Virus record (IMG/VR): IMGVR_UViG_3300042196_000102
Coordinates: 1 to 58,406 of that record
Origin: a virus
Length of the DNA: 58,406 bases
Reading direction: 5' to 3' (one strand)
Shown here one piece after another: positions 1 to 58,406 of the stretch; within the stretch, counting starts at the first letter, position 1, and the number at the start of each line of letters is the position of its first letter. Position numbers and translations under genes: made by a program. Under the pieces are notes generated by a model. The model saw only the letters and a list, made by a program, of their open reading frames with translations. It was not told the origin of the DNA and searched no databases.

Positions 1-127
1 GAACCCGACCCCGTTCAGGAAAAATGTCTGGTTTTCAGACTGCTCATCCTCGGTCTGCCTCCTGTACATGGCTTGGAGCATCCGCCAGATCAGGTACCGA
101 TTCTCAAACTGCCAACACTGCGCGGTT
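1..127. repeat. 127-bp terminal sequence identical to the window end (circular-assembly overlap)
   Basis: Bases 1-127 are identical to 58280-58406. 127 nt is a common maximum assembler k-mer, so the contig closes into a circle of 58,279 unique bp. Confidence 0.95.
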
Positions 128-225
128 GGGTTGCCCAGCACCCACCGGATACGCCGTTCGGTCCAGCCTTCCTCGGCGGGCGGGCCGGGGTGGGAGAAGG
201 TTTCCGGGTTCATGGAGACACCCAT
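1..225 (-). CDS. N-terminal part of a 138-aa hypothetical protein that spans the circular junction
   Basis: ATG at 225-223 (minus) follows a GGGAGGG SD. The frame runs through base 1 and, via the duplicated 127 bp, joins ORF 58088-58360 (48+90 aa). It starts MGVSMNPETF. Confidence 0.6.
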   Translation of the reverse strand, partial: MGVSMNPETFSHPGPPAEEGWTERRIRWVLGNPTAQCWQFENRYLIWRMLQAMYRRQTEDEQSENQTFFLNGVGF

Positions 226-256
226 GAGTCCCTCCCTTTTTTGAGCGTGGTTTTGG

Positions 257-500
257 GTGTGTCACCAGTCACTACCTTCGGTAGATATTCTATCTTCGCA
301 CGCGCGCGCGCGTAAAAGGTTGTGGGGGGGTAAGTGGTGACACTGGTGACACGCCCTAAAGTATTGTTTATAGGCAACTTGTGACTACCCATGGCACCAG
401 CAACGGAATTGTAGAGTGGTGACACATCCCCAAATTGGGGGCAAAACGGGGGGTTGCCGTGCAATGTGTCACCACTCTTCCAACTCATACTGGTGACACC
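257..500. repeat. Iteron-like cluster of six copies of GGTGACAC (putative replication origin or operator)
   Basis: GGTGACAC lies at 336-343, 345-352, 418-425 and 492-499, and its complement GTGTCACC at 259-266 and 466-473. The extended consensus is (G/C)TGGTGACAC. AT-rich patches (281-298, 356-380) and an alternating CG run (297-314) lie between copies. This is the largest non-coding region and it sits beside the primase-helicase gene. Confidence 0.6.
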
Positions 501-1711
501 TCGGGTTGTTCCGTGGGTTGAGTGTAGACCCATTTCCGTCCCGCCTTCCTGCCCCCTAGCCGAACTTGCCTCCTGACCCAACCATTAATCCGCAAGTGCC
601 GGACCACCCGGTTCTGGTCGGCCTGTGTACATTCACCTAACATCTTACTTAGCGGGCCGGCCAGCAACTCGGAAACCGACACGGACGTGTGCTTGAGGCA
701 GTACTGGTCAATCAACTCCCCCCAGCAGTCCTGCTCCAACCGTGTCTTCTGTTCCCCATCAGCCATACGGATCAACCAGTTATCCGGCCAGTGTGGTAAC
801 TCAGACTTATACTGGTGGACCGCCTCGGCCCAGAGTTGCTCACGGTCCTTGGCTAACCCCCAGAAGTCTGCCCGCTCACAGTGGACGGGCCAATACCGCC
901 GGTTACCCTCCTCGTCATATAGCCAAGTCGCCCGGTCTGTCGTGCCGGCAAATACGCACTGCCTTGGGTACTGCTGGACCCGGCGCCCATAGGGGGGCTT
1001 GTAGCAGTCCACGCGGCGGGTTAGGAACGCCTTGAGCCGGTCCCCCTTGTACTTGGTGTAATTGGAAATCTCGGGCAGCTCGATGATCCAATGGCCCGGC
1101 AGGTGCATGGCCGTGTCCTTGGTGCCAAACTCCTGGAGGTCGTCGGAGAACCAGTGGCCAGCCAGGATCTTGAGGGATTGACTCTTACCGAGGCCCTGTT
1201 TGCCTTCCAGGACCAACACGTAGTCCACCTTGCAGCCAGGCTTATACACCCGTGCGACTGCCGACCGCATCCACAGTTGCCCGACGGTGGAGGTGTACTC
1301 ATTGTGCTCAACCCCCAAGTAAACCGTGAGCCAGAGATCCAGCCGTGGTACGTGGTCCCATTCTAGGCGCTCCAGATAGAGTTTGACGGGGTGGAACGGG
1401 TTCCGGGAAGCCACCACCCCAACCGCTTCCGAGGCCACTCGGGAGGAAACCAGCACCATGTGCTCCTGGAGCCAGGCCGCCGTCTGGTGGTCGTCCTCGT
1501 CGGCCCACTGCCCACCCCCGGTCCTCCACGGCGGCGGCTTGTGGCAAGCGATGGCACCGGTGAAGCTGTTGAACGCCAGGACCCCTTGCCAGACTGGGTC
1601 GTCGGTCAACAAGTTTATGGCACCAGCCAAGTTGGGGCTGTATCGGTCGCGGGAGGATTTGTCTGTATCTGGGTGTTTGTCTCTAGGTCTATCATGGTAG
1701 GCAGTTTCCAC
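485..1711 (-). CDS. VirE-family / D5-like primase-helicase (P-loop NTPase)
   Basis: 408-aa ORF. Walker A is GKQGLGKS and the Walker-B-like strand is HWIIELPE. The layout is typical of virulence-associated protein E and phage/plasmid primase C-terminal helicases. Confidence 0.85.
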   Translation of the reverse strand: METAYHDRPRDKHPDTDKSSRDRYSPNLAGAINLLTDDPVWQGVLAFNSFTGAIACHKPPPWRTGGGQWADEDDHQTAAWLQEHMVLVSSRVASEAVGVVASRNPFHPVKLYLERLEWDHVPRLDLWLTVYLGVEHNEYTSTVGQLWMRSAVARVYKPGCKVDYVLVLEGKQGLGKSQSLKILAGHWFSDDLQEFGTKDTAMHLPGHWIIELPEISNYTKYKGDRLKAFLTRRVDCYKPPYGRRVQQYPRQCVFAGTTDRATWLYDEEGNRRYWPVHCERADFWGLAKDREQLWAEAVHQYKSELPHWPDNWLIRMADGEQKTRLEQDCWGELIDQYCLKHTSVSVSELLAGPLSKMLGECTQADQNRVVRHLRINGWVRRQVRLGGRKAGRKWVYTQPTEQPEVSPV

Positions 1712-1738
1712 ACTTCTCTCCCTTGTAAAAGTAAGGGC

Positions 1739-3482: not shown

Positions 3483-3753
3483 TATGGTTCAATGTTCTGT
3501 TCCGCGACTCCGCGACAGTTTCCGATCCATTGCCAAAGGTGCAACCTTCCACAGTACAGCCATATTTCCGGGTAAAGAAAAGCCGATGATTGTTGGAGCA
3601 ACAGCCTTGCTCAAAAGAAGTGTTTCTATCGTGGCAATGATACTTACCCTCTACATCATAGAAACTATGGACTCGTATGTCTGTCGTTTGCATGATACCG
3701 GCCATGTGTATCGTGCTCTTTTTGCCTTCACGCGCACACACCGGGCATTTCAT
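3457..3753 (-). CDS. Hypothetical Cys/His-rich protein on a low-GC islet
   Basis: 98 aa with CPVC, HCH, CC and C-x2-C motifs. It is visibly AT-richer than its flanks. ATGA overlap with the integrase stop. Confidence 0.55.
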   Translation of the reverse strand: MKCPVCAREGKKSTIHMAGIMQTTDIRVHSFYDVEGKYHCHDRNTSFEQGCCSNNHRLFFTRKYGCTVEGCTFGNGSETVAESRNRTLNHIEEKPIAS

Positions 3754-4436
3754 AAATCTACTCCCCTCATCGCCTTCTGGTAATCCCCCTCCACATCCGT
3801 CAGGGCAAGGTGCGTGTACACTTCAAGGCTCTTGCGGGAGGCGTGCCCAGTAATCAGTTGTATCTGGGCATCCTCCATCCCATTTCTCTTCAGCCATGTT
3901 ATCAGTTGGTGCCTGAACAGGTGAGGGTGTACCCCCTCAAACCCATTCTCTAGGGCGTACTTGGCCACGATCTGCCTCACCCGCCGGGTGGTGTAGGGCC
4001 TGCCCCACGCGCTCTCGAAAAGGTACTCCTTGGTCGGGTGGGCCTCCATGTATGCCTTCAGCAGCAGCCGGAACCCATCCTTGAAGAGCACGTATCGGTC
4101 CTTATCACCCTTGCCCTGCTCAATAAATATCCTATTGGCCCCTAAGTCCAAGTCTGACAACTTGATCTTGACAAATTCCCCAACCCTCACCCCCGTGTAG
4201 TACAGCAGTCGTAACATGATCTGATGCTTGAGGTCCCCGCCTTCGTCCATCTGATTGTAGAACCGCTTGAGGGCTTCGTCGGAGAGCAGCTTGGGGAGAT
4301 GGCGGGAGGGGCGTGGACGGCTCAGTCCCACCTCCTGCCGGACTTCCTTGCAGATATCCACGAAGGAGGGGTAGTCCAAGTGGTGCTGGCGGACCAACTT
4401 GGCGATGGCCCGGATGAGGAGGGAGCGGGAGGTCAC
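3750..4436 (-). CDS. Tyrosine recombinase / integrase (Xer-like, 228 aa)
   Basis: Catalytic motifs are present: YYTGVRVGE (Arg), HPHLFRH (H-x-x-R) and LITGHASRKSLEVYTHL (His and the nucleophilic Tyr). Confidence 0.9.
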   Translation of the reverse strand: MTSRSLLIRAIAKLVRQHHLDYPSFVDICKEVRQEVGLSRPRPSRHLPKLLSDEALKRFYNQMDEGGDLKHQIMLRLLYYTGVRVGEFVKIKLSDLDLGANRIFIEQGKGDKDRYVLFKDGFRLLLKAYMEAHPTKEYLFESAWGRPYTTRRVRQIVAKYALENGFEGVHPHLFRHQLITWLKRNGMEDAQIQLITGHASRKSLEVYTHLALTDVEGDYQKAMRGVDL

Positions 4437-5255: not shown

Positions 5256-5759
5256 TCAGTCTAGGGCCATCGCCAGCGCCACGGCCCCACCCAGGATCAA
5301 GGCCCCGGTGACCCAACCCGTCCCCAACCCCGCCGTCAGACTGCCCGGCTGTGGCAACGGGGTACCGGGGTAGGTGGCAGGTAGACCGGGTTGCCCCCCA
5401 AACATGGCCTTGGCCCCCAATACCGTGGCGGCGTAGGTGCGGGAAGAATCGGGAATGTTGCCCCGTGTGCAGGCGTCGGGGCCGGAGTTGTAGGCCATCA
5501 GCGCCAAGTCCTCCCGCCCGCAGATGGAGAGCATCTGGCGCAAGTACGTTACCCCGCCCCGGATGTTGCTGGCCAAGTCGGTTGGGTCCACGTTGAGGGA
5601 GGCGGCAGTCGAGGGCAGCAATTGGAATACCCCCACCTCCCCTGCCGTGCCCCGTGCCCCCTGGTTGAAGCTACTCTCGACTTGAGCGAGGGCGAGAGCA
5701 AGGGCGGGGTCTACGGCTTGCCGTTGGGCCTCCTGCGTAATCATCTCCTGGACTGTCAT
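5256..5759 (-). CDS. Lytic transglycosylase (SLT domain) with a C-terminal TM anchor
   Basis: AQVESSFNQ carries the catalytic Glu-Ser. GVFQLLP and LMAYNSGP motifs are present. The C-terminal hydrophobic helix is WVTGALILGGAVALAMAL. Confidence 0.85.
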   Translation of the reverse strand: MTVQEMITQEAQRQAVDPALALALAQVESSFNQGARGTAGEVGVFQLLPSTAASLNVDPTDLASNIRGGVTYLRQMLSICGREDLALMAYNSGPDACTRGNIPDSSRTYAATVLGAKAMFGGQPGLPATYPGTPLPQPGSLTAGLGTGWVTGALILGGAVALAMALD

Positions 5760-5944
5760 ACTGCCAGTGCCGCCAGTCTAGGTAGGAGCCACAACAGGAG
5801 CCACAACACCAGCCCCAACACGATCAACACGTTGACGATGTTCTTGATCCTGGGGTCAATCGACAGGGTACTCAGCAAGTACCAGCACAGCCCCACTATC
5901 GCCAGCACCACCAGGATCACCGCCATCAGGTTTACTACCGGCAT
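5756..5944 (-). CDS. Holin-like small membrane protein
   Basis: 62 aa with two strongly hydrophobic helices, sandwiched between two muralytic enzyme genes. Confidence 0.55.
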   Translation of the reverse strand: MPVVNLMAVILVVLAIVGLCWYLLSTLSIDPRIKNIVNVLIVLGLVLWLLLWLLPRLAALAV

Positions 5945-5956
5945 ATTCAGCCTCCC

Positions 5957-6271
5957 TCAGGCCCCTTGCTTCGGGTCCCACTCACAATGCAAATGATCGG
6001 CCTCCAGCACCACGTCCCACTCTGACCCCAAGGCCATTGCCAACGTATCCTTGAGTTTGTCGGCCTCCTCCTGCATGATCCCCGCCGCAGCGGTGCGGCA
6101 ATCGAAGGCGCACCCTTTGTAATGCAGGCTCCCGCTGGCGTGTGTGGAATCGCAGATTGAGGTAATAGTGAGCGTGTGCCCGTGGTCCTGGTACACGCGG
6201 TCGGCCACCAGCAAGCCCACTACGGCCTCGGGGCGGAGGCCCAGGAGCCGTACACCAAGCTTGAGGTTCAC
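5957..6271 (-). CDS. Peptidase M15 (VanY / L-Ala-D-Glu peptidase-like) endolysin
   Basis: Zn-ligand motifs are H-x6-D (SLHYKGCAFD) and H-x-H (DHLHCEW), in a protein of the typical ~100-aa size. Confidence 0.75.
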   Translation of the reverse strand: MNLKLGVRLLGLRPEAVVGLLVADRVYQDHGHTLTITSICDSTHASGSLHYKGCAFDCRTAAAGIMQEEADKLKDTLAMALGSEWDVVLEADHLHCEWDPKQGA

Positions 6272-6900
6272 TGGGCCACCTTCATCCTCGCCACGTTCCC
6301 CAAGTCCAAGGTGAACCTTTGCATCTGCACCCCGTCCGGTTGCTTGCTGGTAAACAGGAACACCGTCTGGGCCTGCCCCGGCCCAAGGCTAGCGGCCTCT
6401 CGCCAACTCAACTTAGTGAAGTTGCCCGCAATCTGGATCTCCTCCCCCCGGAACTGGTCCACAATCCAGGGCAGGATCTTGACCCCTTCTGCTGCGCCAG
6501 CGGCTACTTGGGGCGGGGCACTCACCAAGCCCGAGGTAGTGACCGTGGCCACGATCCCCCCTACCACCAACCCTACTCGGCCCACCCGGTTCCAGTGGGT
6601 AGTGGACTCGGCCCGGTCAATGATGGGCTGGAGGACTTCGGGTAGGTAGGGTACGGTCTGGATCATCCTGGCCCGGATCGCCCCCGGCTGGACCATTACC
6701 TGTTCAGCGGACCTGTTCTCCAGGGCCACCGCCCACACCGTGATCAGCTTGGTGGCCTGCTTCCCAAGCATCTGTTGGACGTACTTGACCTGCTCGGGGC
6801 TGGTGAGGGGTTGGGCCGTCACCTCTACCAGTTGGGCAAGGGTGGGCAAGGGTATAAGAAGGGCTAATAGCAGTGTGCGCATAAGAGTGGTGTGGGCCAA
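6268..6900 (-). CDS. Secreted / exported hypothetical protein
   Basis: 210 aa with an N-terminal signal-peptide-like segment, MRTLLLALLIPLPTLAQL. Confidence 0.65.
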   Translation of the reverse strand: MAHTTLMRTLLLALLIPLPTLAQLVEVTAQPLTSPEQVKYVQQMLGKQATKLITVWAVALENRSAEQVMVQPGAIRARMIQTVPYLPEVLQPIIDRAESTTHWNRVGRVGLVVGGIVATVTTSGLVSAPPQVAAGAAEGVKILPWIVDQFRGEEIQIAGNFTKLSWREAASLGPGQAQTVFLFTSKQPDGVQMQRFTLDLGNVARMKVAQ

Positions 6901-6985
6901 CCACGTCTATGGCAAGATGGTAGGCCCACCCTTTCTCCCTGGCCTCTAGCACGGTGGAGTGTCAATGAGACCCGGGGAAGCCTTG

Positions 6986-7588
6986 TTACTCCTTGTTGCC
7001 CGCCAGCGCCTGGGCCACCGCCGCTGCCACCACCGCCCCGATTGCCTTCAGAGAGGCATCGTCGATGGTCACGGCCCTCAACACAACCCCCTCCGCCGCC
7101 CCTTGCGACGGTTCCAGGTTCCACTCGTGGTCGATGGCGATGTCGCTGTGCCGTACCGCCTGCTTGCCCACCATGTTGGCCGTCTCCACCGCGTTCTGAA
7201 GTGCCTGGAGAGCCACCTTGCGGGTGTCGTTGTCGTGGGTCTGGGCATCCGAGAGCACCTTGTCCACATACGACCGGTTCCGTTTGATGGACTCCAAGGA
7301 CTCCTGCTGGTACTCGTCGTAGGTCCGCTTCACATTGGCGAACAGTACCCCCTGGTTGTCCACGCCGGCGGTCTGCAACCTTTCGGCAAACCCTGTCTCC
7401 TCCTGGAGCACCTGTGTGGCCTGGGAGCTGAGCTTCTGGGCCAAGTCGGATACGGCTTGGTTGACTTGTTGAGCAGTCTGTGAGGCGGACTGTACGCTTG
7501 CCGCCGCCTGCGCCACCTGCTCTACCAATTGCGCGATCTCACGGGCGGTCGTGTCAGACCGCTCTGTTTCACCTGCTTGTTTGTCCAT
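6986..7588 (-). CDS. Hypothetical coiled-coil protein (200 aa)
   Basis: The N half is Gln/Ala/Ser-rich and heptad-like. No family recognised. Confidence 0.65.
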   Translation of the reverse strand: MDKQAGETERSDTTAREIAQLVEQVAQAAASVQSASQTAQQVNQAVSDLAQKLSSQATQVLQEETGFAERLQTAGVDNQGVLFANVKRTYDEYQQESLESIKRNRSYVDKVLSDAQTHDNDTRKVALQALQNAVETANMVGKQAVRHSDIAIDHEWNLEPSQGAAEGVVLRAVTIDDASLKAIGAVVAAAVAQALAGNKE

Positions 7589-7616
7589 GCTACCTTTCCT
7601 TTTCCTTTTCTCAGAA

Positions 7617-7988
7617 TTAGACCCTATTTAGGCCCCCAATCTTCTTGCCTTTGGCCTTGGCCAAGTACTCTTCCACCTGTTTGGCGATGGAGGGCAGGCT
7701 GTAGCCGGGCCGACCCCTTACACCTGCCACTGAGTAGTGTACATCCATTGCCATGTCCCCCGCAATTGCCATGGCACCCTCCCTTGGCAGGAAGGTGCTG
7801 AACCAGCGGGCTGAGAGGGTCTTGTGGATGCCGAGGCCCCCATCGGCCCGGCGCCGGGGGTCTGGGTTGAGCACCACCACCCCCCACCCGCCGACCTCAG
7901 TCACGGGTAGGACTAGGGTTGTAATCTCTTCGGGGATCATTCCCTCCAAGTATGCCCGAACGTGCTCTGCAAACTCTTTTGCCGTCAT
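7617..7988 (-). CDS. Hypothetical protein (123 aa)
   Basis: ATG 7988 overlaps the upstream stop (ATGA). The track start at 8036 is probably over-extended. Confidence 0.55.
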   Translation of the reverse strand: MTAKEFAEHVRAYLEGMIPEEITTLVLPVTEVGGWGVVVLNPDPRRRADGGLGIHKTLSARWFSTFLPREGAMAIAGDMAMDVHYSVAGVRGRPGYSLPSIAKQVEEYLAKAKGKKIGGLNRV

Positions 7989-8365
7989 CCGTTTCTCCTT
8001 TTCAGTTGCCGGATACGGTCCCGGCACTTGGCACACTTACCACACTCGCAAGACCTCTTGTACTGGGGGAAGTACCTGTAGTCAAACTGTTTCTGTAATC
8101 GTTCAATATGGGGTGCCACCCCCGCAGACTCACAGGATAGGACCTCCCGGCAAAAAGTTGGCTCCGTGCGCCCCCGGAAGCCCGCTTTCAGTGTCCTGTA
8201 CCCATACCGGAAAGCCATCGCCGATAACTGGGCCTGCACGTTCCCACCTGTCAACGCACACAGGGCCAACTCCTGCCGCACATCCTCCTGGTTCTCCCGC
8301 AACAGTTGCCGATATCGTTGGTTGCAGATCCGTACTCCGTACCCGATGGCGTGCTCAATAGTCAT
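7985..8365 (-). CDS. Hypothetical protein with a C-terminal Cys cluster (CECGKCAKC)
   Basis: 126 aa from ATG 8365, which overlaps the upstream TGA (ATGA). Confidence 0.55.
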   Translation of the reverse strand: MTIEHAIGYGVRICNQRYRQLLRENQEDVRQELALCALTGGNVQAQLSAMAFRYGYRTLKAGFRGRTEPTFCREVLSCESAGVAPHIERLQKQFDYRYFPQYKRSCECGKCAKCRDRIRQLKRRNG

Positions 8366-9198
8366 AGCACCGAGCACCTTCCACTGTTGGGGCTGAGAAA
8401 CCGGATGGTCACGTCAAAGGTGGGGGTGATGGAGATGGAATCGGGGAGGATCACCTTGGAGGGGGTGGCAGAGGACCGGCAGGACACGATGAGGTCCGGG
8501 GAGCCTATTTGGTGGTCTGCGAAGGGGATGAGCACGGTATCGGTGGCCGTGAAGTCTTTCCCGTACCGCAGGCCCACCCGGTCCACCATCACCTGGTTGG
8601 CCGCCCCGCCCTTGGCCACTGCGATCCCGGACCCTGCATCCAGTAGGTCGCGCCGGTACGGGGCACGCCAGTCCTGGCAGGGTAGGGTCCATACCCCCGC
8701 CGTGGCATCGCACCGGTACAGCATGAAAGAGTCTGCTGCAAACTGCTCCTGGGTGGTGTCCCGCGTACAACCGGCATCGCAGGTCAGGGTGAGGGCCTTG
8801 CTGGACACTCCCATCTGCCCGTCCCGCTTGACGTACAGGAAGGCCGCCCCCGTCCCGGTGCTAAGGGTCACAGTGGCGGGTTGGGAGATGGCGAAGGCTT
8901 GATTGGTGAACCCCACCTTGCAGGGGGTGGTGGGGGTGCAGTCGGCCCCCAGAGTGAGGACCTTGGAGGTGGCAGTAAGGCTGAACGGTAGAGTGGAGGC
9001 GGGTGGGCGTGCCGAGTCCGACACCGCCCGGATACGGCCATTAGGGTCCACGGTGATCGTGAGGTCCTTGCCAGGTCCCCCGTAGACCCCGGAGACGGCC
9101 CCGGTGGGCCGCAGCACCATCTCCAGCGGGCCGTCCGGTTGCTGGCCTACCAACCAAGTGGTACTCAGCAGTACCAGCGCTACGATTGCCTTACGCAT
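8362..9198 (-). CDS. Secreted hypothetical protein (278 aa)
   Basis: ATG 9198 follows a GGAGGGCGAGG SD. The signal peptide is MRKAIVALVLLSTTWLVGQQ. The rest is beta-rich and Thr/Gly-rich. Confidence 0.7.
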   Translation of the reverse strand: MRKAIVALVLLSTTWLVGQQPDGPLEMVLRPTGAVSGVYGGPGKDLTITVDPNGRIRAVSDSARPPASTLPFSLTATSKVLTLGADCTPTTPCKVGFTNQAFAISQPATVTLSTGTGAAFLYVKRDGQMGVSSKALTLTCDAGCTRDTTQEQFAADSFMLYRCDATAGVWTLPCQDWRAPYRRDLLDAGSGIAVAKGGAANQVMVDRVGLRYGKDFTATDTVLIPFADHQIGSPDLIVSCRSSATPSKVILPDSISITPTFDVTIRFLSPNSGRCSVL

Positions 9199-9210
9199 AC
9201 CTCGCCCTCC

Positions 9211-9245
9211 ATCATGACCGATGCTTGCCCAATAGTCAACCCCCC
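9211..9245 (-). promoter_or_regulatory. Conserved phage promoter motif, copy e
   Basis: The minus strand reads GGGGGGTTGACTATTGGGCAAG, with a 17-nt spacer measured from TTGACT, then CATGAT, then the SD, then ATG 9198. Confidence 0.55.
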
Positions 9246-9257
9246 TGGCTCGGGGGC

Positions 9258-9467
9258 CTACTTGTGGGGCTGGTAGCTGGCCGTGGCGGGCGTCGCGTCG
9301 GGGTTGGAGTAGTGGGCCAGCACAGCCACCACCAACTGCAAGGCTCCCACCAGGGTTGCCGCTATCCACTGGGCCTCCCCGGTAAACACCTGCCCCGCTG
9401 CATTCAGGCCCTGGATGGCCGTGGCTAGCACCTGCACCACCCCGTTAGTTGCAATTCCGATTCTCAT
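9258..9467 (-). CDS. Small two-helix membrane protein (holin-like)
   Basis: 69 aa from ATG 9467, which follows an AAGGAGAAG SD. It has two hydrophobic segments. Confidence 0.5.
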   Translation of the reverse strand: MRIGIATNGVVQVLATAIQGLNAAGQVFTGEAQWIAATLVGALQLVVAVLAHYSNPDATPATASYQPHK

Positions 9468-9483
9468 TTTGGCTTCTCCTTTT

Positions 9484-9861
9484 CTAGAAATGTTGCTTCT
9501 TTCCTGTTCCCGGCTCACCGGTATGGTACCGCCGTATTCTGCCCACCCAATCAACAATCTTGTCTGCCGACAGGAGCAGGACCGGGATGAGCAGGGCAAA
9601 TAGTAACTGGTTGGTCTTTTCCCTCTGGACCGCCGCCTGCTCCAGGCGGTCCACCCGTAGTTGCAGGTTTAGCTCCTCCAGTCGGTCCAGCCTCTTGCTC
9701 AAGTCCCGGACTTGGTACTCAACATAAGGTGCTGTCTTGAGGTGCTCCCTAACCTCCGTCCGCTCCTGCTCGGTAAATTGGGCTAACTGGGCGGGTAGCA
9801 GGGTGAGCACGTACAACAAGGCCAGTACCATTGCTGTCAACCGCAGCCCCAAGGTTGTCAT
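9484..9861 (-). CDS. Membrane protein with TM, coiled coil and TM
   Basis: 125 aa from ATG 9861. N- and C-terminal hydrophobic helices flank an LDRLEELNLQLRVDRLEQ coiled coil. Confidence 0.5.
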   Translation of the reverse strand: MTTLGLRLTAMVLALLYVLTLLPAQLAQFTEQERTEVREHLKTAPYVEYQVRDLSKRLDRLEELNLQLRVDRLEQAAVQREKTNQLLFALLIPVLLLSADKIVDWVGRIRRYHTGEPGTGKKQHF

Positions 9862-49463: not shown

Positions 49464-50234
49464 TCAACTCCTTTCTGGTTCCGTCAACTGCCTGACAATG
49501 GACTGGGCTATGGAAGGCCCAATCCCTACCACCTCCTGCAACTCCCTCTCCGTGGCGATACACAGGTCCAACACCGTCCTGAACCGTTGGGCCAGTGGCC
49601 CACTGCGCTCCCAGCCCACGTGCTCAAGCTGGACGGCCACCCTCCTGACCACCGAGGGCTTCACCAGCATGACCGTGGGGGGCGGCGGGGTGTAGATGGC
49701 AAAGCAGGACTTGTGCTCCTCCCATTCCTTATCGTTGAACCACCGGTACAGGTTCACCAGTTGGGTGGCCGTGGAGGGGGCGTCGGGGGACCACTTCACC
49801 TTGACTGGGGTGTGGAGGGCCTGCGTGGTCAAGAAGTTGTCCATCTCGGAATAGGGGAACCCGCTCTGCCCCACCCTTACGTCATACCATCCCAACCACC
49901 CCCGGTTCTCGTCCCCGTCCCGAGGCTTGAACCAGCCCTGCTCCATCACCGCTGTTTGGGGGTTGGGGCGCACCAAGCCCTCCACAATGAGGAAAGCGAA
50001 GTCGTGCTCCCCTACCAGCTTGCGCAACTGTTCGCCGGCATACCTTCCACTGCGGGCGGAGTGCATGAGGTCACGCAGGACCTTTCTCTCACACCCTACT
50101 TTGCATCGGCCTTTTGGCCCCCAACCCTCAAAGGCAAAATCGGTGGGCAGCTCGGTGATCTGCACCGGGACCCCCCGCGACTGGATGAGGGGAGCGATCT
50201 CTACCGATCCGGCGCGACGATCCACCAGAATCAC
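49464..50234 (-). CDS. ERCC4-type (XPF/Mus81-like) nuclease with a C-terminal helix-hairpin-helix
   Basis: The core is GCERKVLRDL (ERK motif) and the HhH is VVGIGPSIAQSIV. The start is probably GTG 50234 (GTGA overlap) or GTG 50225, not the track start at 50345. Confidence 0.75.
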   Translation of the reverse strand: MILVDRRAGSVEIAPLIQSRGVPVQITELPTDFAFEGWGPKGRCKVGCERKVLRDLMHSARSGRYAGEQLRKLVGEHDFAFLIVEGLVRPNPQTAVMEQGWFKPRDGDENRGWLGWYDVRVGQSGFPYSEMDNFLTTQALHTPVKVKWSPDAPSTATQLVNLYRWFNDKEWEEHKSCFAIYTPPPPTVMLVKPSVVRRVAVQLEHVGWERSGPLAQRFRTVLDLCIATERELQEVVGIGPSIAQSIVRQLTEPERS

Positions 50235-51517
50235 TCCTTTGCCTCCGCCCCTGCCAAGACAGCAGCACAGCGGGCCTCGTGAATCCGGGTGTAGTCGGGG
50301 TTGGACTCGATGGCCGTTACCTCCTCCCACCCGGCCAACTGGCACCCGATGGCCTCGGAGCCGGAGCCGGAGAAAGGGACTAGGATGCGGCGAGGGGAAG
50401 AGGGGCGGGGAGGTGGGAGGAGGAGGGAGGCAAGGTAACGGCAGAGGTCCAAGGGTTTGACCGTGGGGTGGTCGTTGCCCTCTCCGCGCTCCTTGCGGCT
50501 GGCCTTGGCACAGTAGAAGAAGCGGGAGGCGCCGCCGGAGTCGCCAAAGCGCATCCCGTTACCATCATGCTGCCCGACACCGAATAAACCGCCATCGCTA
50601 TCCTGAACACTTCTCCCACCCGAACGCTTGGAACCGGCAGAATGAATCACCCTATCTGTTTGCGCATCCAGCATCGCCGCCGCCTCCTCATCGAGCAGCA
50701 GGTTGGCGGGCCAGCGGCCTAACACTTCTGACTTCTCTTGGGCCTCCGCGCTACGTTGCCGCATAGCCTCGCGTGCCGCACTATCCCGCATCCAAGGCCG
50801 TTGCCAACCTTCATGATGATTCTCTGCCTTTTTCCCGCAAGTGGAACCACCACCTTGCAGCGATTCACCAGTCGGAACAATCCTCCCCGCGTCAATCGCC
50901 AGTCCCGCCGCCCCCCACTTCAGCGCGTTCTCTGCAAACGTCCCCTCGCACGGCTTCATGGCGACCAGGATGGGCTCCCAGGCGGGCTTGAAGGCGGTGC
51001 CGTGACCAAACCAAGCCTGTGCTTCGGGAACGAGATCGCGGCGAACATTTTCCGTCTGCTCTCGCATGAACTGCCCCGGCCCCGCACCAAATCCGCGACC
51101 GGACGGGTTCTCTTCCGAGCATCCACCCTTGTATTTTCCATGTCCGGACGACGTAGGGTCCGGCCCACCCTGAGGGAACCCGCGCACGGCCTTGTCAATC
51201 GCCTTACTCACATCCAGCGACTTCGGGAACCCCGTCCCGTAGAGCCACATCATCGTATCCCGCAACTCAAACCCGGCATCCTCAATCGCCACGGCCAGCC
51301 GGTGCCACGTCCGCGTGCCCCCAAAGGCCATCAGGAACGCCCCAGGCTTGAGCACCCGCCACACCTCCCGCCACACGCCTACACCCGGCACCCCGTGATC
51401 CCATTCCTTGCCCATGAACCCCAACCCATACGGCGGATCGCAGAAACAGGCGTCGAAGGTACAGTCCTCAAAGGCAGGTAGGGCCTCCTGCACCAACATG
51501 GGGATGATATCTACCAT
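50231..51517 (-). CDS. DNA methyltransferase (N6-adenine/N4-cytosine, beta class)
   Basis: 428 aa. Motif IV is FCDPPYGLG near the N terminus and motif I is ILVPFSGSGSE near the C terminus. Confidence 0.85.
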   Translation of the reverse strand: MVDIIPMLVQEALPAFEDCTFDACFCDPPYGLGFMGKEWDHGVPGVGVWREVWRVLKPGAFLMAFGGTRTWHRLAVAIEDAGFELRDTMMWLYGTGFPKSLDVSKAIDKAVRGFPQGGPDPTSSGHGKYKGGCSEENPSGRGFGAGPGQFMREQTENVRRDLVPEAQAWFGHGTAFKPAWEPILVAMKPCEGTFAENALKWGAAGLAIDAGRIVPTGESLQGGGSTCGKKAENHHEGWQRPWMRDSAAREAMRQRSAEAQEKSEVLGRWPANLLLDEEAAAMLDAQTDRVIHSAGSKRSGGRSVQDSDGGLFGVGQHDGNGMRFGDSGGASRFFYCAKASRKERGEGNDHPTVKPLDLCRYLASLLLPPPRPSSPRRILVPFSGSGSEAIGCQLAGWEEVTAIESNPDYTRIHEARCAAVLAGAEAKE

Positions 51518-52065
51518 GGCACGTCGTCGGCGTGGTACTCCCTGACCAGCATGAGCAGCAATCCCAAGTAGTTGTACCCTCTCCCATCCGATACCCCCCA
51601 GAACGTGTCCCCCCTCTCGTTCACCTCCACCAACTCCCTCTCCCCTGTCTCCTCCAACCTCCTTGCCAAGTACGGGTCCTCAAACTTCACCCCGAGCAAG
51701 GCGTGCATCAACTGGACTTTGTTCTCTTCCCACCCCTTAGCCAACTCCACCGTGCGCCCCAGCTTCTTAGCCTCTCCAGGTTTCTCGCAGGCCCAGATCC
51801 TGGTGGCCTCCTCCCCCCTCACGCACTTGGAGGCTTGGAAGGCATGCTCCAGGGTCCGCCACTGGCGCCCGCACCACTCGAAGTTACGGAGGGGGTAGAA
51901 GTTGGAGAGGAAGGCCCAGGAGTCACGGAAGGGGCCAATGATACCGGGGTGGAGAGGGTAGAGCGGAGGGAGGTTGGAGGCAATAATTGGGGGTCGATCC
52001 GGGGGTTGGTCTTGAGGTATATCATCCCCCTGTTGACGGGCCTCGTTGAAGATTCCGTAGCCCAT
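51511..52065 (-). CDS. NADAR (YbiA/DUF1768) family protein
   Basis: 184 aa from ATG 52065. The hallmark is FLSNFYPLRNFEWCGRQWRTLEHAFQASK. Confidence 0.8.
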   Translation of the reverse strand: MGYGIFNEARQQGDDIPQDQPPDRPPIIASNLPPLYPLHPGIIGPFRDSWAFLSNFYPLRNFEWCGRQWRTLEHAFQASKCVRGEEATRIWACEKPGEAKKLGRTVELAKGWEENKVQLMHALLGVKFEDPYLARRLEETGERELVEVNERGDTFWGVSDGRGYNYLGLLLMLVREYHADDVPW

Positions 52066-52937: not shown

Positions 52938-53193
52938 GTCGCCCCCCTTTCTTCTCCTGTGCTTTCCGTCTCGTGATCGCACCCCGGCCCACCCCGTGCT
53001 CCCACACCCCTTCTATGCTCTGCAACACCTCCCGGACGGAGGCGGCGGCCATATACAGGTGGTGCTGAGTCTGTAGCAGTCGGTTGACGAGCCAATCCAC
53101 CCTGGCCTCACGCCCGAGGACCCAATTTATCTTGTCCTCAATTCCCACCCTCTCATTCAATGCTTTTGCCGCCGACCCTTGTTTGACACTCAT
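52924..53193 (-). CDS. Hypothetical protein (89 aa)
   Basis: ATG 53193 overlaps the upstream TGA (ATGA). Confidence 0.45.
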   Translation of the reverse strand: MSVKQGSAAKALNERVGIEDKINWVLGREARVDWLVNRLLQTQHHLYMAAASVREVLQSIEGVWEHGVGRGAITRRKAQEKKGGRRGKQ

Positions 53194-53990
53194 AGCCAGT
53201 ACTCCACCGGCAGTTCCGGGTAGACCATCGAGGCCAAGCTGGGAAAGTTGCATCCAAGCCGGTCAGGTGGAATCCCATCCCCCTCCAGTTCCAAGCCTGT
53301 TACGTCCGGTGTCTGCCTGCTCACCCCCACCACCCGCGCCCCAAACCTTCCAGGCTCCTCCCCGGTGGGGTCCACAAAGTAGTGCTCCAGCTTCATGTCC
53401 ACCAGGTACGGGGCGTCCCCAAACCCGGCAAACTCGTACCGCCCCGTCCAGGAGTCGTCCCCCTTCTTGTTCTGCTTGTACTCCTTCTTCTGCTTGTGAA
53501 TCCAGATACAGTTGAGGTCTTCCCGCTGATAAGCCCGCTTGATGAGGTTGCGCATGATCTTGTTGACCTCAACGTAATGGTGAGGCTTGACCTGGGAGAT
53601 TTTCCCGAACTTGGCCAGCCGGAGGGTTTCATATACCTCCGTCCCTGTATCTACAACCAGAGTGCGTATCTTGGGGTTGTCCATCCCCGCGATGATGGCC
53701 CCACTCAATTTCTCCCACTCCCTTTGCGCTTCGTCCTGGTTGTCGATGTCCGACACGTCAACCATACTCAGGATGATCTGCTTGGAGGACAGGAACTTGC
53801 CGGCCACTTCCTCCGTGCCGGTGTCGGTGGCCACAGCAGCGATGGGTCCGGGGGCGGTGAAGGCGAAATGTGTCTTGCCGGCTTTTTCCCGTGCGCAGGT
53901 GCAGAGGACGAGACGCTTCTGGGCCTTTACACGCACATGGAAGAAGCCCGCTTTCGTAAGGCTGGGGTCGAGCACAATGGGTTGGGTCAT
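53190..53990 (-). CDS. Sak4-like / AAA_24 RecA-fold ATPase (recombination)
   Basis: 266 aa. Walker A is AREKAGKT and Walker B is TLVVDTGTE. The size and context are typical of phage Sak4-type proteins. Confidence 0.7.
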   Translation of the reverse strand: MTQPIVLDPSLTKAGFFHVRVKAQKRLVLCTCAREKAGKTHFAFTAPGPIAAVATDTGTEEVAGKFLSSKQIILSMVDVSDIDNQDEAQREWEKLSGAIIAGMDNPKIRTLVVDTGTEVYETLRLAKFGKISQVKPHHYVEVNKIMRNLIKRAYQREDLNCIWIHKQKKEYKQNKKGDDSWTGRYEFAGFGDAPYLVDMKLEHYFVDPTGEEPGRFGARVVGVSRQTPDVTGLELEGDGIPPDRLGCNFPSLASMVYPELPVEYWL

Positions 53991-56343: not shown

Positions 56344-56385
56344 ACAAATTCATTCTCCTTTTTAAATGTTGAGGCCACTTTGAAG

Positions 56386-56421
56386 AGGGTATCACAGGTC
56401 TTGCCCAATAGTCAATACCCC
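56386..56421 (-). promoter_or_regulatory. Conserved phage promoter motif, copy a
   Basis: The minus strand reads GGGGTATTGACTATTGGGCAAG, with an 18-nt spacer measured from TTGACT, then TACCCT (56391-56386). Confidence 0.5.
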
Positions 56422-56520
56422 TGTACGAAAGGTCCGGCTGGCGGGGCCTCGACGCTTGTTTGGCCAGCCAGGAACCTGTAAGCTTGCTTGCCAATGTACT
56501 CAGAGTAGGCAGGGATACTC

Positions 56521-58113
56521 TCATTGCCCGTCCCCCAACGACGCTGGCGGCTCCGGCACCACCTGGCTCCTCCTGTACCGCCGCTTCCACCACTCCGGCA
56601 GCTCGTGTCCGTACTGCGCGAGGAACCGTCTTACCGTGTCATCCACCACCAAGTTCTCGGCTTTGTCCGTCTCCGAGCGGCAAGCCCGCCCGCACACCTG
56701 CACCAAGGATTGCCCCGTCAGGTACAGGATGTACTCCTTGTCGTCCCTCTTCCGGGCCTGCATCAAGGCCGAGCGGTCATCCGGGTAGGGGATCTTGGCA
56801 ATCACCTGATACTCACAGCTTGGACCAGGGAAATCGTACCCCGTGCTCAGACTGGGCGATACGAGCACAGCCCCGCTTGCAGGCGCCTCCCGCTTGAACC
56901 TCTCGACCACCTGCTGTGTGTCGTCTGAGTCGTGAGCCAGCATCCGATCCGCATACCGGCTGTGCCCGAGCACAAAGTCCCGCCGGGCATAGGACACCGT
57001 ATGCACAATCCCCTTCCGGTCCCCCCTTCCCCCGATCACCTGGTCAATCCGGCTCATCCACAGCGCCATCACGCCGGCGTCCGCGTGGCGGTCCATCACT
57101 ACGGTGGGAATGTGAATGATAGGGGAGTTGGCCGGCGGGAAGCTGGAGGGGTACTCCCAGAACGTCATCTGGGTATTGGGGATCCCCAGTAAGCCAGCCG
57201 TCTTGGGCCTCAGCGTGGCGCTGTAGAGCACGACACGGGGGATGCCAAGGAAAAGTACCTTCTCGGCATACTGGGAGGGCCACAACGGGTCCAGCCTGAA
57301 CCCATGCCGGGTTGCCTCCACAATCCACGGCCCCAGCATACCGGCTAGGGACTGCAACTTGCGGTGGAGGGCCTTCCATTGCCGTAACTGGCTCAGCCTA
57401 GCCGAAGAGGCGTCCCCGTTCCGTATTGCGTCCCCCAGTGCCCGCACCCGGGCGTCGGCTTCGGGCAGGTGGTGGGTGGCCCACTCCTGCCAAGCCGTCT
57501 GACTCTCCTCCGGGGTAGGGTACTCCCCACCGAGAATTTGGTACACCTCCCGGCTTGTGACCTCGCAGGCCACCGCGTTGCAGATAGCATCCCCGCAGTC
57601 GTGGGCCTCGTCGCAGGCCAGCAACCCGAACTGGCCCAGCCCCTCCCCGTAGGCGTGGATGGCACACCAATAGGAGTAATTGGTCACGAGGAGGGAGGCT
57701 TGCTTGGCCTTCTCGTAGGCCATCCAGTAAGGGCAGGCCTTGGTGCGGTTCATGGAGCAGCGGGCGTCCTGACCGTCCTCACAAGTCATCGAAGGGGACA
57801 TGTGGCAGGAGTAGTTGTTGCGCCCCCGTATGTCCACGGCCCCGCATCCGGCAAAGTCCCCTAGCACTTGCGCCTGGAGGCCCTTGGTTGAGGTAAGAAT
57901 GGCCGCCCGTTCCCCGCTGATGAGAGCGTGGGCCACCGACACACCCGTCTTGCCCACCCCGGTTGGCATCCCGTGGCCCAGGAACCGGGTGGGGGGGTCG
58001 AGGCAACGGAGGACGGCCTGGACTTGTGAGGGGCGCCAGTCCTGGAACTTGGGAGGGAAGCCCAAGTCGGTAGGGGAAAGGGGCAATTCAGTACTCATTT
58101 CGTTCCCCTTCAT
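56521..58113 (-). CDS. DinG/XPD (Rad3)-family SF2 DNA helicase with an Fe-S-type Cys cluster
   Basis: Motif I is MPTGVGKT and motif II is DEAH (LLACDEAHD). Four Cys lie between them (C-HMSPSMT-C ... C ... C). The alternative start ATG 58098 follows an AAGGGG SD. Confidence 0.85.
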   Translation of the reverse strand: MKGNEMSTELPLSPTDLGFPPKFQDWRPSQVQAVLRCLDPPTRFLGHGMPTGVGKTGVSVAHALISGERAAILTSTKGLQAQVLGDFAGCGAVDIRGRNNYSCHMSPSMTCEDGQDARCSMNRTKACPYWMAYEKAKQASLLVTNYSYWCAIHAYGEGLGQFGLLACDEAHDCGDAICNAVACEVTSREVYQILGGEYPTPEESQTAWQEWATHHLPEADARVRALGDAIRNGDASSARLSQLRQWKALHRKLQSLAGMLGPWIVEATRHGFRLDPLWPSQYAEKVLFLGIPRVVLYSATLRPKTAGLLGIPNTQMTFWEYPSSFPPANSPIIHIPTVVMDRHADAGVMALWMSRIDQVIGGRGDRKGIVHTVSYARRDFVLGHSRYADRMLAHDSDDTQQVVERFKREAPASGAVLVSPSLSTGYDFPGPSCEYQVIAKIPYPDDRSALMQARKRDDKEYILYLTGQSLVQVCGRACRSETDKAENLVVDDTVRRFLAQYGHELPEWWKRRYRRSQVVPEPPASLGDGQ

Positions 58114-58406
58114 CTTCTGTCCAATACGGTTGCCTCTCCTCGCTGGCGGCGATGGCCATCAATTGCCCGATGTACTTCTGGAGTCTCTTCCCTACCAACG
58201 CCGCCTGCTTGACGGTCAGGTTCCGGTAGGGCTTGCTGTGTTCGGCAATTTCGGACAGGATTGGGGCATCCACCCCGTTGAACCCGACCCCGTTCAGGAA
58301 AAATGTCTGGTTTTCAGACTGCTCATCCTCGGTCTGCCTCCTGTACATGGCTTGGAGCATCCGCCAGATCAGGTACCGATTCTCAAACTGCCAACACTGC
58401 GCGGTT
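58088..58406 (-). CDS. C-terminal part of the junction-spanning 138-aa hypothetical protein
   Basis: The frame stays open to the window end and continues, through the 127-bp duplicate, to ATG 225. The track reports only the 90 aa from an internal Met (58360). Confidence 0.6.
   Translation of the reverse strand, partial: TAQCWQFENRYLIWRMLQAMYRRQTEDEQSENQTFFLNGVGFNGVDAPILSEIAEHSKPYRNLTVKQAALVGKRLQKYIGQLMAIAASEERQPYWTEDEGERNEY
58280..58406. repeat. Second copy of the 127-bp terminal overlap
   Basis: Identical to bases 1-127. Confidence 0.95.

Follow-up and report, generated by a model that had tools for sequence, protein, structure and literature searches.

We analysed a 58,406-nt stretch of viral DNA (hereafter the window), which is the whole of IMG/VR record IMGVR_UViG_3300042196_000102 (positions 1-58,406), and conclude that it is likely to be the complete genome of a non-tailed, probably temperate bacterial virus with a jelly-roll shell, a probable lipid layer and no packaging ATPase. 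The initial annotation of this DNA had offered a non-caudoviral virion, whether membrane-containing, icosahedral or pleomorphic, as one alternative; two proteins predicted to fold as jelly rolls (21120-22001 and 24322-24981) and a paralog (23719-24153) support that alternative, short of proving it. These proteins, taken with a run of tail-anchored membrane proteins, favour its membrane-containing icosahedral branch.

Positions 1-127 of the window are identical to positions 58280-58406 (exact prefix match), a 127-bp direct repeat at both ends, which is what a complete genome that is circular or terminally redundant should show. The completeness that had been proposed agrees with the contigs of its relatives, which are of comparable length (44-63 kb). 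The longest open reading frame (ORF), 36669-38597, encodes 642 aa, as previously read. HMMER scans against PHROGs and Pfam covered nearly all ORFs of at least about 50 aa, alternative frames and plus-strand ORFs included, and yielded zero matches to terminase, portal, HK97-type capsid, scaffold, protease, tape measure, tube, sheath, baseplate or FtsK/HerA families; among the large ORFs between 8.3 and 40.8 kb, none matched any profile in the two collections. The matches that were obtained fall on replication and recombination genes, methyltransferases, an integrase, an SLT transglycosylase, HTH regulators, an HNH_3 endonuclease and, weakly, a transglutaminase core. Caudoviral genes are absent at the profile level: the search that the initial annotation had called for rescued none, and its observation of a genome with no terminase, packaging ATPase, portal, HK97 capsid or tail module holds. 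When all six frames were scanned under strict criteria for Walker A, the motif appeared in two real genes only, encoding a VirE-like helicase (485-1711) and a Sak4-like ATPase (53190-53990, minus strand, abbreviated (-) below) whose family is AAA_24/phrog_124, not FtsK/HerA. A third ATPase (56521-58113 (-)) was recognized by its match to a DNA-helicase profile (phrog_2488, 4.5e-59). These three are the P-loop proteins that had been picked out by eye, and the window's only P-loop ATPases are confirmed to be replication and recombination proteins.

AF2 models cover two proteins, 21120-22001 and 24322-24981. Both were among four ORFs previously singled out for structure modelling, and both proved to contain jelly rolls; the other two, 27312-28808 and 36669-38597, gave no profile match. 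The model of the two-barrel (double jelly-roll) protein 21120-22001 (-) is all-beta, with two 8-stranded halves that form beta-sandwiches (pLDDT 87.8, pTM 0.85). Its top Foldseek matches are the P3 proteins of PR772 and PRD1 (E 1e-4, prob 0.99), further matches include iridovirus and PBCV major capsid proteins (MCPs), PNGase F and PHM, and tectivirus MCPs match in BFVD; the TM-score to PRD1 P3 is just 0.27. Both PNGase F and PHM are known cellular double jelly-roll folds (PMC8812541), so that matches to them are expected. The family comprises 50 close homologs and 375 clusters at 50% identity in metagenomes, and its alignment contains no invariant His, Cys or Met of the kind that would suggest a PHM-type enzyme. 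Profiles of the N and C halves align with one another (hhalign prob 95%, E 3.4e-8), a relatedness in sequence that indicates an internal duplication.

The 144-aa protein encoded by 23719-24153 (-) has the size of a single jelly roll and is, by sequence comparison, a paralog of these halves. BLASTP relates it to the N half of 21120-22001 at E 2e-6 and to the C half at 0.022, and hhalign aligns it with the two-barrel family profile over 117 columns (prob 97%, E 7.8e-11). It is found in 23/23 related loci and is a candidate penton or minor capsid protein. A two-barrel major capsid protein accompanied by a one-barrel minor one is the usual pairing, which the alike halves of 21120-22001 and their single-unit paralog reproduce. 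The second capsid-shell candidate, 24322-24981 (-), is a 219-aa protein with N-terminal helices and one predicted jelly roll (AF2 pLDDT 83). No gene of the lineage is better conserved: identity is 40-61% across all 23 related loci, and there are 323 homologs. Its best full-length Foldseek match is SPV1 6oj0_A (prob 1.00, TM 0.40/0.47), and SH1 6qt9_h, HHIV-2 6h82 and C1q/TNF folds also match; the nearest capsid chains are thus those of SPV1, SH1 and HHIV-2. Neither modelled protein matches any GenBank phage, and no sequence link was found between the window proteins and any PHROG capsid family. Since structural-match E-values for the modelled proteins are modest (1e-4 to 3e-3), and cellular jelly rolls (PNGase F, PHM, C1q/TNF) score in the Foldseek range of viral capsid matches, we regard the predicted folds as well supported, while a capsid role is suggested by genomic context.

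The capsid-gene core is kept in 23 related loci, whose contigs reach 63 kb; full-length ones mostly measure 44-63 kb, and most of the loci lie on contigs of this size that IMG/VR classes as viral. Its order, 27312-28760, 25019-25939, 24322-24981, 23719-24153, 21120-22001, 20261-20929 and a common C-terminal domain, is conserved across 19-23 of the 23 loci. Adjoining the jelly-roll genes in 23/23 loci, 25019-25939 (-) encodes an Arg/Lys-rich protein (pI 12, 24% R+K) with a hydrophobic C-terminal third, whose composition and hydropathy make it a candidate DNA-condensing, membrane-associated core protein. The conserved protein 27312-28760 (-) has 482 aa (460-1143 aa in relatives), occurs in 20/23 loci and carries at its C terminus a conserved domain (about 170 aa) beginning with an invariant Asn-Pro; no Pfam domain was found among its 44 homologs, and no link to PDB or Pfam. 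Directly after the two-barrel gene, 20261-20929 (-) encodes a conserved 222-aa protein (21/23 loci) for which profile searches gave no link. Alignment of three window copies defines paralogs with a common C-terminal domain of about 175 aa, which is present in 20/23 loci, often in 2-3 copies. The shortest, 19596-20258 (-), is a candidate vertex protein. The others are candidate vertex spikes: 17029-18738 (-) carries an N-terminal region of about 390 aa and has no PHROG, Pfam or PDB matches, and 15074-16639 (-) bears one Asp-box motif (SVDGGLTW) in its N-terminal region. One relative is located close to one end of a 358-kb contig of Bryobacteraceae and one homolog is named from an Acidobacteriia MAG; the host possibly belongs to the Acidobacteriota.

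Hydropathy and N-termini bear out the 30-kb block of secreted, membrane and beta-rich proteins described in the initial annotation. By hydropathy, a run of small proteins at 29439-36554 (-), at least 10 of them with one C-terminal TM helix, are candidate virion-membrane proteins. The run is conserved in part among relatives and ends in a membrane-anchored, transglutaminase-like protein (35835-36554 (-); Transglut_core, a weak E of 3.3e-4). Beta-rich proteins with Sec-type signal peptides or N-terminal anchors, candidates for host recognition, make up a block at 6268-15110 (-) that has no PHROG or Pfam matches and is interrupted by non-secreted ORFs (6986-8377 and 9484-9906) and a LuxR/sigma-r4 HTH gene (13329-13613). 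Within it, the fibre-like protein 11168-12460 holds five HxH motifs and five GTxSxPxFxG repeats. A secreted beta-rich protein of 446 aa (22018-23358 (-)), encoded between the 23719-24153 paralog and the two-barrel gene, varies among relatives. Large beta-rich late proteins with a Sec-type signal peptide or N-terminal anchor number eight, and the class of exported genes seen in 6268-15110 is also present in a distant relative (L015). The jelly-roll proteins show neither signal peptides nor TM helices by hydropathy and N-termini. A lysis or entry cassette of three genes (5256-6271 (-)) encodes an SLT lytic transglycosylase with a C-terminal TM helix (5256-5759 (-)), a holin-like protein of 62 aa with two TM segments by hydropathy (5756-5944 (-)) and a possible M15-type peptidase (5957-6271 (-)). 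Of the lysis enzymes proposed earlier, the transglycosylase is upheld by PHROG transglycosylase/endolysin families (down to 4e-17), whereas the peptidase has no profile match and is read from motifs by eye.

If the virion is assembled in the cytoplasm and its membrane is internal, the eight exported proteins do not fit as its spikes. Together with their recurrence in a distant relative, the numerous membrane proteins, the lack of an encoded packaging motor and the C1q/TNF-like trimeric jelly rolls that score near the capsid matches of 24322-24981, they would speak for an enveloped or pleomorphic virion, in which exported beta-rich spikes stand on an outer envelope acquired at the cytoplasmic membrane and the jelly rolls either build a nucleocapsid or matrix inside it or serve as spike or lectin domains. 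We consider such a virion unlikely. A two-barrel protein paired with a one-barrel paralog and PRD1-type top matches are hallmarks of icosahedral shells; the jelly-roll proteins bear no mark of export or membrane insertion, and we know of no bacterial virus in which a jelly-roll nucleocapsid is wrapped in an outer envelope.

The tyrosine integrase noted earlier (3750-4436 (-), 228 aa) matches Phage_integrase at 5.2e-34 and phrog_1 at 5.8e-31 within the scanned set, and its HxxRH...GH...Y motif is visible. Replication genes, rightly described as phage-type, match PHROGs and Pfam and form a replication, recombination and modification module of tailed-phage type (39658-58113 (-)), which lies apart from the VirE-like helicase and has thousands of tailed-phage homologs at 32-40% identity by tblastn. 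Besides the Sak4-like ATPase and the DNA helicase, it comprises a split PolA (44573-45874 + 47171-48520 (-)), a ParB-like protein (46261-47067 (-)), an ERCC4-HhH nuclease (49464-50234 (-)), a methyltransferase (50231-51517 (-)) and NADAR (51511-52065 (-)). The integrase and ParB-like protein, the many secreted or membrane-bound proteins, the absence of a hallmark packaging gene and the close scores of cellular double and single jelly rolls could also describe a non-viral integrative element or plasmid, with carbohydrate-binding or surface proteins for jelly rolls and cell-envelope functions for the 30-kb block. This is improbable, given the lysis-type cassette, a tight syntenic core adjoining the hyper-basic DNA-binding candidate on 44-63 kb contigs, the terminal repeat on which the window closes, a two-barrel family devoid of the residues suggesting a PHM-type enzyme, relatives kept in IMG/VR as viral contigs, and profile scans of the window ORFs that matched no conjugation, relaxase or plasmid-replication family.

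Among caudoviral proteins none is better conserved than the large terminase, which always has a Walker-A ATPase. A tailed-phage identity (Caudoviricetes) for the window, with genes for terminase, portal, HK97-fold capsid and tail diverged past profile detection, is highly improbable, for although its replication module is of tailed-phage type, the HxH motifs and repeats of 11168-12460 resemble those in tail fibres and the large ORFs 27312-28760, 36732-38597 and 17029-18738 have no assigned fold (AF2 covered two other proteins), the Walker-A scan leaves no unassigned P-loop ORF for a large terminase, every ORF lacks PHROG and Pfam matches to terminase, portal, capsid and tail, jelly rolls and not HK97 folds are predicted for the two late proteins with the highest conservation, the late block has no gene of tape-measure size, and the fibre candidates bear export signals, unlike tail fibres.

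For a tailless virus with a jelly-roll shell, the closest known systems include the Tectiviridae (PRD1, PR772) and other bacterial double jelly-roll phages (Bamfordvirae, Tectiliviricetes). These supply the best matches of 21120-22001 (P3 and tectivirus MCPs) and share a two-barrel protein accompanied by a small one-barrel protein, many small membrane proteins, a membrane-anchored lytic transglycosylase (P7 in PRD1) and the absence of tail genes. The window, however, measures 58 kb against about 10-20 kb, four to six times larger than the small membrane-containing phages. It encodes a tailed-phage-type PolA and helicase module in place of a protein-primed PolB, lacks an FtsK/HerA packaging ATPase, retains two barrels that are alike in sequence, adds an SPV1-like single jelly-roll protein and exported beta-rich proteins, and has no sequence link to PHROG capsid families. 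[quoted passage not shown] The likeness of 24322-24981 to SPV1 is at the level of fold (TM 0.40-0.47, 13% identity), and SPV1 differs in its archaeal host, 20-kb genome and lack of a two-barrel protein and replication genes. SPV1 carries mini-CRISPR arrays; the window has a putative CRISPR-like array at 39145-39542. The Helvetiavirae (P23-77, SH1 and HHIV-2, with two single jelly-roll capsid proteins) contribute the SH1 and HHIV-2 matches of 24322-24981 and also have more than one jelly-roll capsid gene in a conserved block; their virions have an internal membrane, as that of the window probably does. They differ in an FtsK-type ATPase beside the capsid genes and genomes of 17-31 kb, and one jelly-roll gene of the window is a fused double. 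In the Odin and FLiP groups, too, a double jelly-roll capsid gene occurs with no detectable packaging ATPase (PMC5894146), but their genomes are 7-11 kb and that of FLiP is ssDNA. The absence of a motor there has been put down to small genome size, an explanation that cannot apply to the 58 kb of the window.

To our knowledge, every known dsDNA jelly-roll virus larger than about 20 kb encodes an FtsK/HerA packaging ATPase, and we know of no precedent for a 58-kb jelly-roll virus genome that does not. The distant relatives L005 and L006 do encode a HerA-family ATPase, so the motor-less state may be specific to the lineage, or the packaging function may be otherwise supplied. In the tailless jelly-roll virus that we propose, the shell would consist of vertical-type jelly-roll proteins, with bulk capsomers from the two-barrel protein 21120-22001, lattice and fivefold positions completed by 23719-24153 and/or 24322-24981, and vertex or spike components provided by the C-domain paralogs 19596-20258, 17029-18738 and 15074-16639. 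The tail-anchored small membrane proteins at 29.4-36.5 kb point to a lipid layer in the virion, entry and/or lysis would be served by the membrane-anchored lytic transglycosylase 5256-5759, and replication by the module of tailed-phage kind. Given the lack of an encoded packaging ATPase, the 58-kb DNA would most likely be condensed by the Arg-rich, membrane-associated protein 25019-25939; as has been suggested for SPV1 and for the FLiP and Odin groups, membrane and shell would then close around the condensed DNA, rather than DNA being pumped into a preformed shell. Jelly-roll viruses with no packaging ATPase are known in the Odin and FLiP groups (PMC5894146) and in SPV1, which has a basic nucleoprotein core (PMC8459092; PMC8812541). 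On the best reading, the window would belong to icosahedral phages that have no tail, probably contain a membrane and form a new lineage.

We consider it likely that this genome belongs to a tailless virus with a jelly-roll capsid. The 58,406-bp sequence has a GC content of 60% and its first 127 bases recur exactly at the 3' end; an exact terminal repeat is the usual mark of a circular or terminally redundant complete genome. A gene call based on codon usage yields 88 genes, nearly all on the minus strand, with plus-strand exceptions in an HNH endonuclease gene (26585-27322) and a gene of 621-642 aa (36.7-38.6 kb). Neither tRNA genes nor Rfam families were found in the window. When practically every ORF, including those in alternative frames and on the plus strand, was compared with PHROGs and Pfam using HMMER, the sole matches were to a VirE-like primase-helicase (485-1711), a DNA helicase (56521-58113), a split family-A DNA polymerase (44573-45874 and 47171-48520), a Sak4-like AAA_24 ATPase (53190-53990), a ParB-like protein, an ERCC4-HhH nuclease, methyltransferases, NADAR, DUF4326, a tyrosine integrase (3750-4436), HTH regulators, a LuxR/sigma-r4 protein, an HNH_3 endonuclease, an SLT lytic transglycosylase (5256-5759) and a weak transglutaminase core (35835-36554). 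For the polymerase and the helicase, tblastn returns thousands of homologs in tailed phages (32-40% identity), so that the genome joins a replication module of tailed-phage type to a jelly-roll structural module. The presence of genes for an integrase and Cro/C1-type regulators suggests a temperate life. Near the contig junction, with the helicase gene upstream, positions 251-485 hold a cluster of five overlapping inverted repeats on GTGTCACCAGT / ACTGGTGACAC, which may be an operator, origin or attachment region.

The structural module is conserved. Searching with all window proteins (tblastn) against 23 distinct related loci from IMG/VR, metagenome-assembled genomes (MAGs) and one NCBI contig defined a syntenic core, which comprises, in order, the C-terminal domain of 27312-28760, an arginine-rich protein (25019-25939), 24322-24981, 23719-24153, a two-barrel gene (21120-22001), 20261-20929 and one to three genes with a shared C-terminal domain of ~175 aa. 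The two-barrel gene escaped tblastn in four loci, where a divergent 274-aa homolog occupies its place. The shared C-terminal domain occurs three times in the window, once alone (19596-20258) and twice fused to large N-terminal regions (17029-18738 and 15074-16639), an arrangement that recalls the penton/spike pairs of tailless phages; profile searches with this domain were blank, and its family profile gave only noise against the PDB. Pfam, PHROGs and the PDB offer no link for the protein encoded by 27312-28760 or for its 44 homologs (460-1143 aa), and profile searches of the kind that the initial annotation had proposed for the region 27312-28808 assigned it to no family (Pfam scan of 38 homologs; family profile against the PDB, noise). 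The motif [RK][RK]x?NP, which may be a processing site, appears three times in 27312-28760 and three times in 25019-25939, and Asn-Pro is invariant where the conserved C-terminal domain of the former begins. Between these two genes sits the HNH_3 endonuclease (26585-27322, plus strand), with N-terminal Zn-ribbon repeats; the closest relatives retain it, and it resembles an inserted homing-type gene more than an HNH of packaging.

One member of this core is the two-barrel protein, 21120-22001 (293 aa in the JGI gene call). Its close homologs number 50, on contigs that reach 61 kb, and an exhaustive profile search of metagenomes extends the family to 375 clusters at 50% identity. An AlphaFold2 model built on the exhaustive-search alignment (pLDDT 87.8, pTM 0.85) is all-beta, with two halves of ~8 strands each. 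The initial annotation had singled out this ORF for modelling and structural comparison, and the outcome is two predicted barrels: in Foldseek searches of the PDB, the P3 capsid proteins of PR772 and PRD1 rank first (E 1e-4, probability 0.99), followed by iridovirus and PBCV-1 capsid proteins, PNGase F and peptidylglycine monooxygenase, with low TM-scores of ~0.27. Among the best matches to predicted viral structures are the tectivirus capsid proteins of Gluconobacter phage GC1 and Bacillus phage Wip1 and an asfarvirus-like capsid protein. This list is coherent, because PNGase F and PHM are cellular proteins with the double jelly-roll fold (PMC8812541). We regard the double jelly-roll fold of the model as supported, at these low TM-scores. 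No tblastn match to the protein was found among GenBank phages (50,697 records), and 63 diverse family members matched no PHROG capsid family.

The two halves of this protein are related in sequence. Their C-terminal strands align by BLASTP, and, for 13 diverse members, hhalign matches the N-half profile to the C-half profile along the full length (probability 95%, E 3.4e-8). The small neighbouring protein 23719-24153 (144 aa) matches the N half by BLASTP at E 2e-6 and the C half at 0.022, and aligns with the family profile over 117 columns (hhalign probability 97%, E 7.8e-11); the motif F-x-G-[VA]-[RK]-R terminates all three units. Together, the paralogy and the half-to-half alignment indicate that the genome holds a fused jelly-roll pair and a free single unit of one family. 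A two-barrel major and a one-barrel minor capsid protein are the usual pairing in the double jelly-roll virus kingdom, and we know of no described double jelly-roll capsid protein in which the relationship between halves and paralog can still be read in sequence. The distant relative L005 has two copies of the two-barrel gene, at 10001-10732 and 12161-12739.

A second candidate capsid protein, 24322-24981 (219 aa), is the best-conserved gene in every relative examined (40-61% identity) and has 323 homologs. Modelling and Foldseek comparison, again as originally advised, gave short N-terminal helices and one jelly roll (AlphaFold2, pLDDT 83), the best full-length matches being capsid chains of Sulfolobus polyhedral virus 1 (SPV1; 6oj0_A, probability 1.00, TM 0.40/0.47), SH1 and HHIV-2, all at E-values above 1e-3 and with C1q/TNF-type jelly rolls scoring near them. 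No sequence relation between this protein, the two-barrel family, the shared C-terminal domain and 20261-20929 was detected by hhalign. A tblastn search of the 50,697 GenBank phage records found no match to 24322-24981.

Other late genes bear on the nature of the particle. At least 10 small proteins at 29.4-36.5 kb end in a single transmembrane helix by hydropathy, and the transglycosylase and transglutaminase-like protein are likewise anchored by a C-terminal transmembrane helix; a run of tail-anchored small proteins is characteristic of phages whose virions include a membrane. The arginine-rich protein 25019-25939 (pI 12, 24% Arg+Lys) has a hydrophobic C-terminal third, and this hydrophobic tail and the tail-anchored proteins are indirect evidence for a probable internal lipid membrane in the virion. 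Eight large beta-rich late proteins, seven at 6.3-15.1 kb and the eighth at 22018-23358, carry Sec-type signal peptides or N-terminal anchors. One of the eight, 11168-12460, is reminiscent of phage fibres in its five HxH motifs and its five repeats of GTxSxPxFxG, and the exported beta-rich class also lies behind the capsid genes of the distant relative L015 (14459-19488). Sec-type signals on phage receptor-binding proteins are unusual and hard to reconcile with cytoplasmic assembly, and the PRD1 model of assembly does not accommodate exported spikes. These exported proteins are the main support for an enveloped or pleomorphic particle, an alternative that we regard as unlikely.

The absence of tailed-phage genes, first noticed by eye, now stands at the level of profiles, because the systematic scans were blank. 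In practically all ORFs HMMER found zero matches (PHROGs and Pfam) to terminase, portal, HK97 capsid, scaffold, protease, tail or FtsK/HerA families; tube, tape measure and baseplate profiles matched no window ORF, and the large ORFs at 8.3-40.8 kb were all blank. The largest ORF does have 642 aa, as had been stated; it is encoded on the other strand and not within the late block. Of the hallmarks of Caudoviricetes, an HK97-fold capsid has no profile match in any ORF, the two best-conserved late proteins being predicted jelly rolls in their AlphaFold2 models; a large terminase (ATPase plus nuclease) likewise has none, and a six-frame scan of the window confined the Walker-A motif to replication/recombination-type proteins, namely the VirE-like helicase and the Sak4-like protein; portal and tail module, too, drew no profile match. 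The idea that the Sak4-like ATPase is a packaging enzyme in disguise was rejected, because its matches, AAA_24/phrog_124, are families of recombination proteins. The 9-33 kb region had no megablast match among GenBank phages, PDB sequence searches with 21120-22082, 36732-38597, 39658-40842 and 17029-18738 returned only noise, and 36732-38597 has no relatives in IMG/VR. A non-viral element is an improbable reading. Of the two explanations first offered for the missing genes, a non-caudoviral virion gains from the two predicted jelly-roll folds and the lack of any caudoviral profile match, and a cryptic tailed phage with genes too divergent to recognise is very improbable.

The tailless virus that we prefer would have to enclose its DNA by other means, for the FtsK/HerA-superfamily (A32-like) packaging ATPase of Bamfordvirae is absent from the window. 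To our knowledge, the jelly-roll viruses without such an ATPase are the Odin and FLiP groups and SPV1. The former have genomes of 7-11 kb (PMC5894146); SPV1, with 20 kb, wraps its DNA in a basic protein beneath the membrane (PMC8459092; PMC8812541). Given this analogy, and given that a hyper-basic protein is universal in the core, we infer a route of condensation and enclosure, in which the 58-kb DNA would be condensed by the arginine-rich, membrane-associated protein and enclosed during assembly without a motor. A search for P-loop ORFs in 27 related loci found a HerA-family ATPase in two only, L005 (IMGVR_UViG_3300043811_000165, ~14.7-15.9 kb) and L006 (IMGVR_UViG_3300050821_013320, ~12.6-14.2 kb), on the strand opposite to the capsid genes and a few kb past them. 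No homolog of this HerA/FtsK-superfamily protein (Walker A GKTGSGKS; DUF87 1e-11, HerA_C, weak FtsK_SpoIIIE) is encoded in the window. In the PDB it best matches HerA proteins from cells and defence systems, which leaves a packaging role unproven; it could be the packaging ATPase missing from the window or an unrelated or defence gene.

A further feature is a CRISPR-like mini-array at 39145-39542 (minus strand), in which a 36-nt repeat, CCCGTAGTGGACACAGGAAAGAGTGTCTGCTGCGGG, occurs four times without change and once or twice more, degenerate, at the distal end; the spacers (39, 35 and 35 nt) are all unique. The repeat folds as a perfect 14-bp hairpin (dG -23.8, z -5.95). The array lies directly downstream of 39658-40842 (minus strand), encoding a 394-aa Zn-ribbon protein with no Pfam, PHROG or PDB match, whose C-terminal half appears by eye to be TnpB/Cas12 RuvC-I/II-like and ends before RuvC-III; upstream of this ORF, at 40882-40950, is a G-rich 14-nt tandem array of ~3-5 copies, AGGGGGAAAGGGGG. 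No copy of the 36-nt repeat was found elsewhere and no protospacer was found, so the CRISPR reading is unconfirmed; a rival reading is that of iterons or partition sites ~7 helical turns apart.

Evidence on the host comes from L015 (JAXLQN010000013.1, positions 1344-22033), a structural module near the start of a 358-kb Bryobacteraceae MAG contig, which suggests an integrated provirus and an Acidobacteriota host; that stretch contains no tRNA, and the junctions lie outside it. One homolog of 27312-28760 is labelled Acidobacteriia. We take the placement of other relatives in MAGs of unrelated phyla to be a binning error.

In its probable workings the virus most resembles the tailless membrane phages of tectivirus/corticovirus type, although it lacks the ATPase that characterizes their kingdom, Bamfordvirae. 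The Bamfordvirae MCP has two barrels that stand vertically in the shell and forms pseudo-hexameric trimers; the window offers a predicted two-barrel protein with PRD1-type MCPs as top matches, at a TM-score of only 0.27, and two penton candidates in the one-unit paralog 23719-24153 and the modelled single jelly roll 24322-24981. With Portogloboviridae it shares an SPV1-type jelly roll, a basic protein and the lack of a motor: a conserved pI 12 candidate for the nucleocapsid protein, 25019-25939, adjoins the capsid genes, with no sequence relation to SPV1 VP1. That family, however, has only single jelly-roll shell proteins, without the conserved two-barrel protein and the probable bacterial host of the present virus. 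The Helvetiavirae block of an ATPase with small and large single jelly-roll MCPs is not found, there being no ATPase, and 24322-24981 resembles the SH1 and HHIV-2 chains at fold level only. Because it is tectivirus-like yet ATPase-less, and Portogloboviridae-like yet two-barrelled, we place the lineage among the tailless viruses with jelly-roll capsids, probably as a family or a higher rank. No description of it was found in the literature, coverage of which was incomplete, and prior publication is possible.

Pipelines keyed to terminase, portal and HK97 markers will misclassify this diverse lineage, the genomes of which (~45-63 kb) are not in cultured-phage databases. The tailless jelly-roll phages of bacteria known to us have genomes of only ~10-20 kb and, apart from Odin/FLiP, always an FtsK/HerA ATPase. 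If our reading is true, the size range of bacterial jelly-roll viruses grows several-fold, and enclosing a large dsDNA genome apparently does not require a dedicated motor. We further entertain, as a tentative and rather doubtful proposal, that the lineage combines a separate, virus-internal origin of the double jelly-roll MCP with motor-less enclosure of a 58-kb dsDNA genome, and stands at class level at least, outside Bamfordvirae and Helvetiavirae. A single jelly-roll gene, persisting as 23719-24153, would have undergone duplication and fusion to yield 21120-22001, an event recent enough for halves and paralog still to resemble each other in sequence. The origin of the double jelly-roll MCP is debated between duplication and fusion in viruses and capture of a cellular protein (PMC8812541). 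If our main reading is true, the sequence relationship of the halves and the free one-barrel paralog makes that origin testable by ordinary phylogenetics; under the more tentative proposal, the lineage would be a living example of the duplication and fusion route, as opposed to capture of a cellular DUF2961-like protein.
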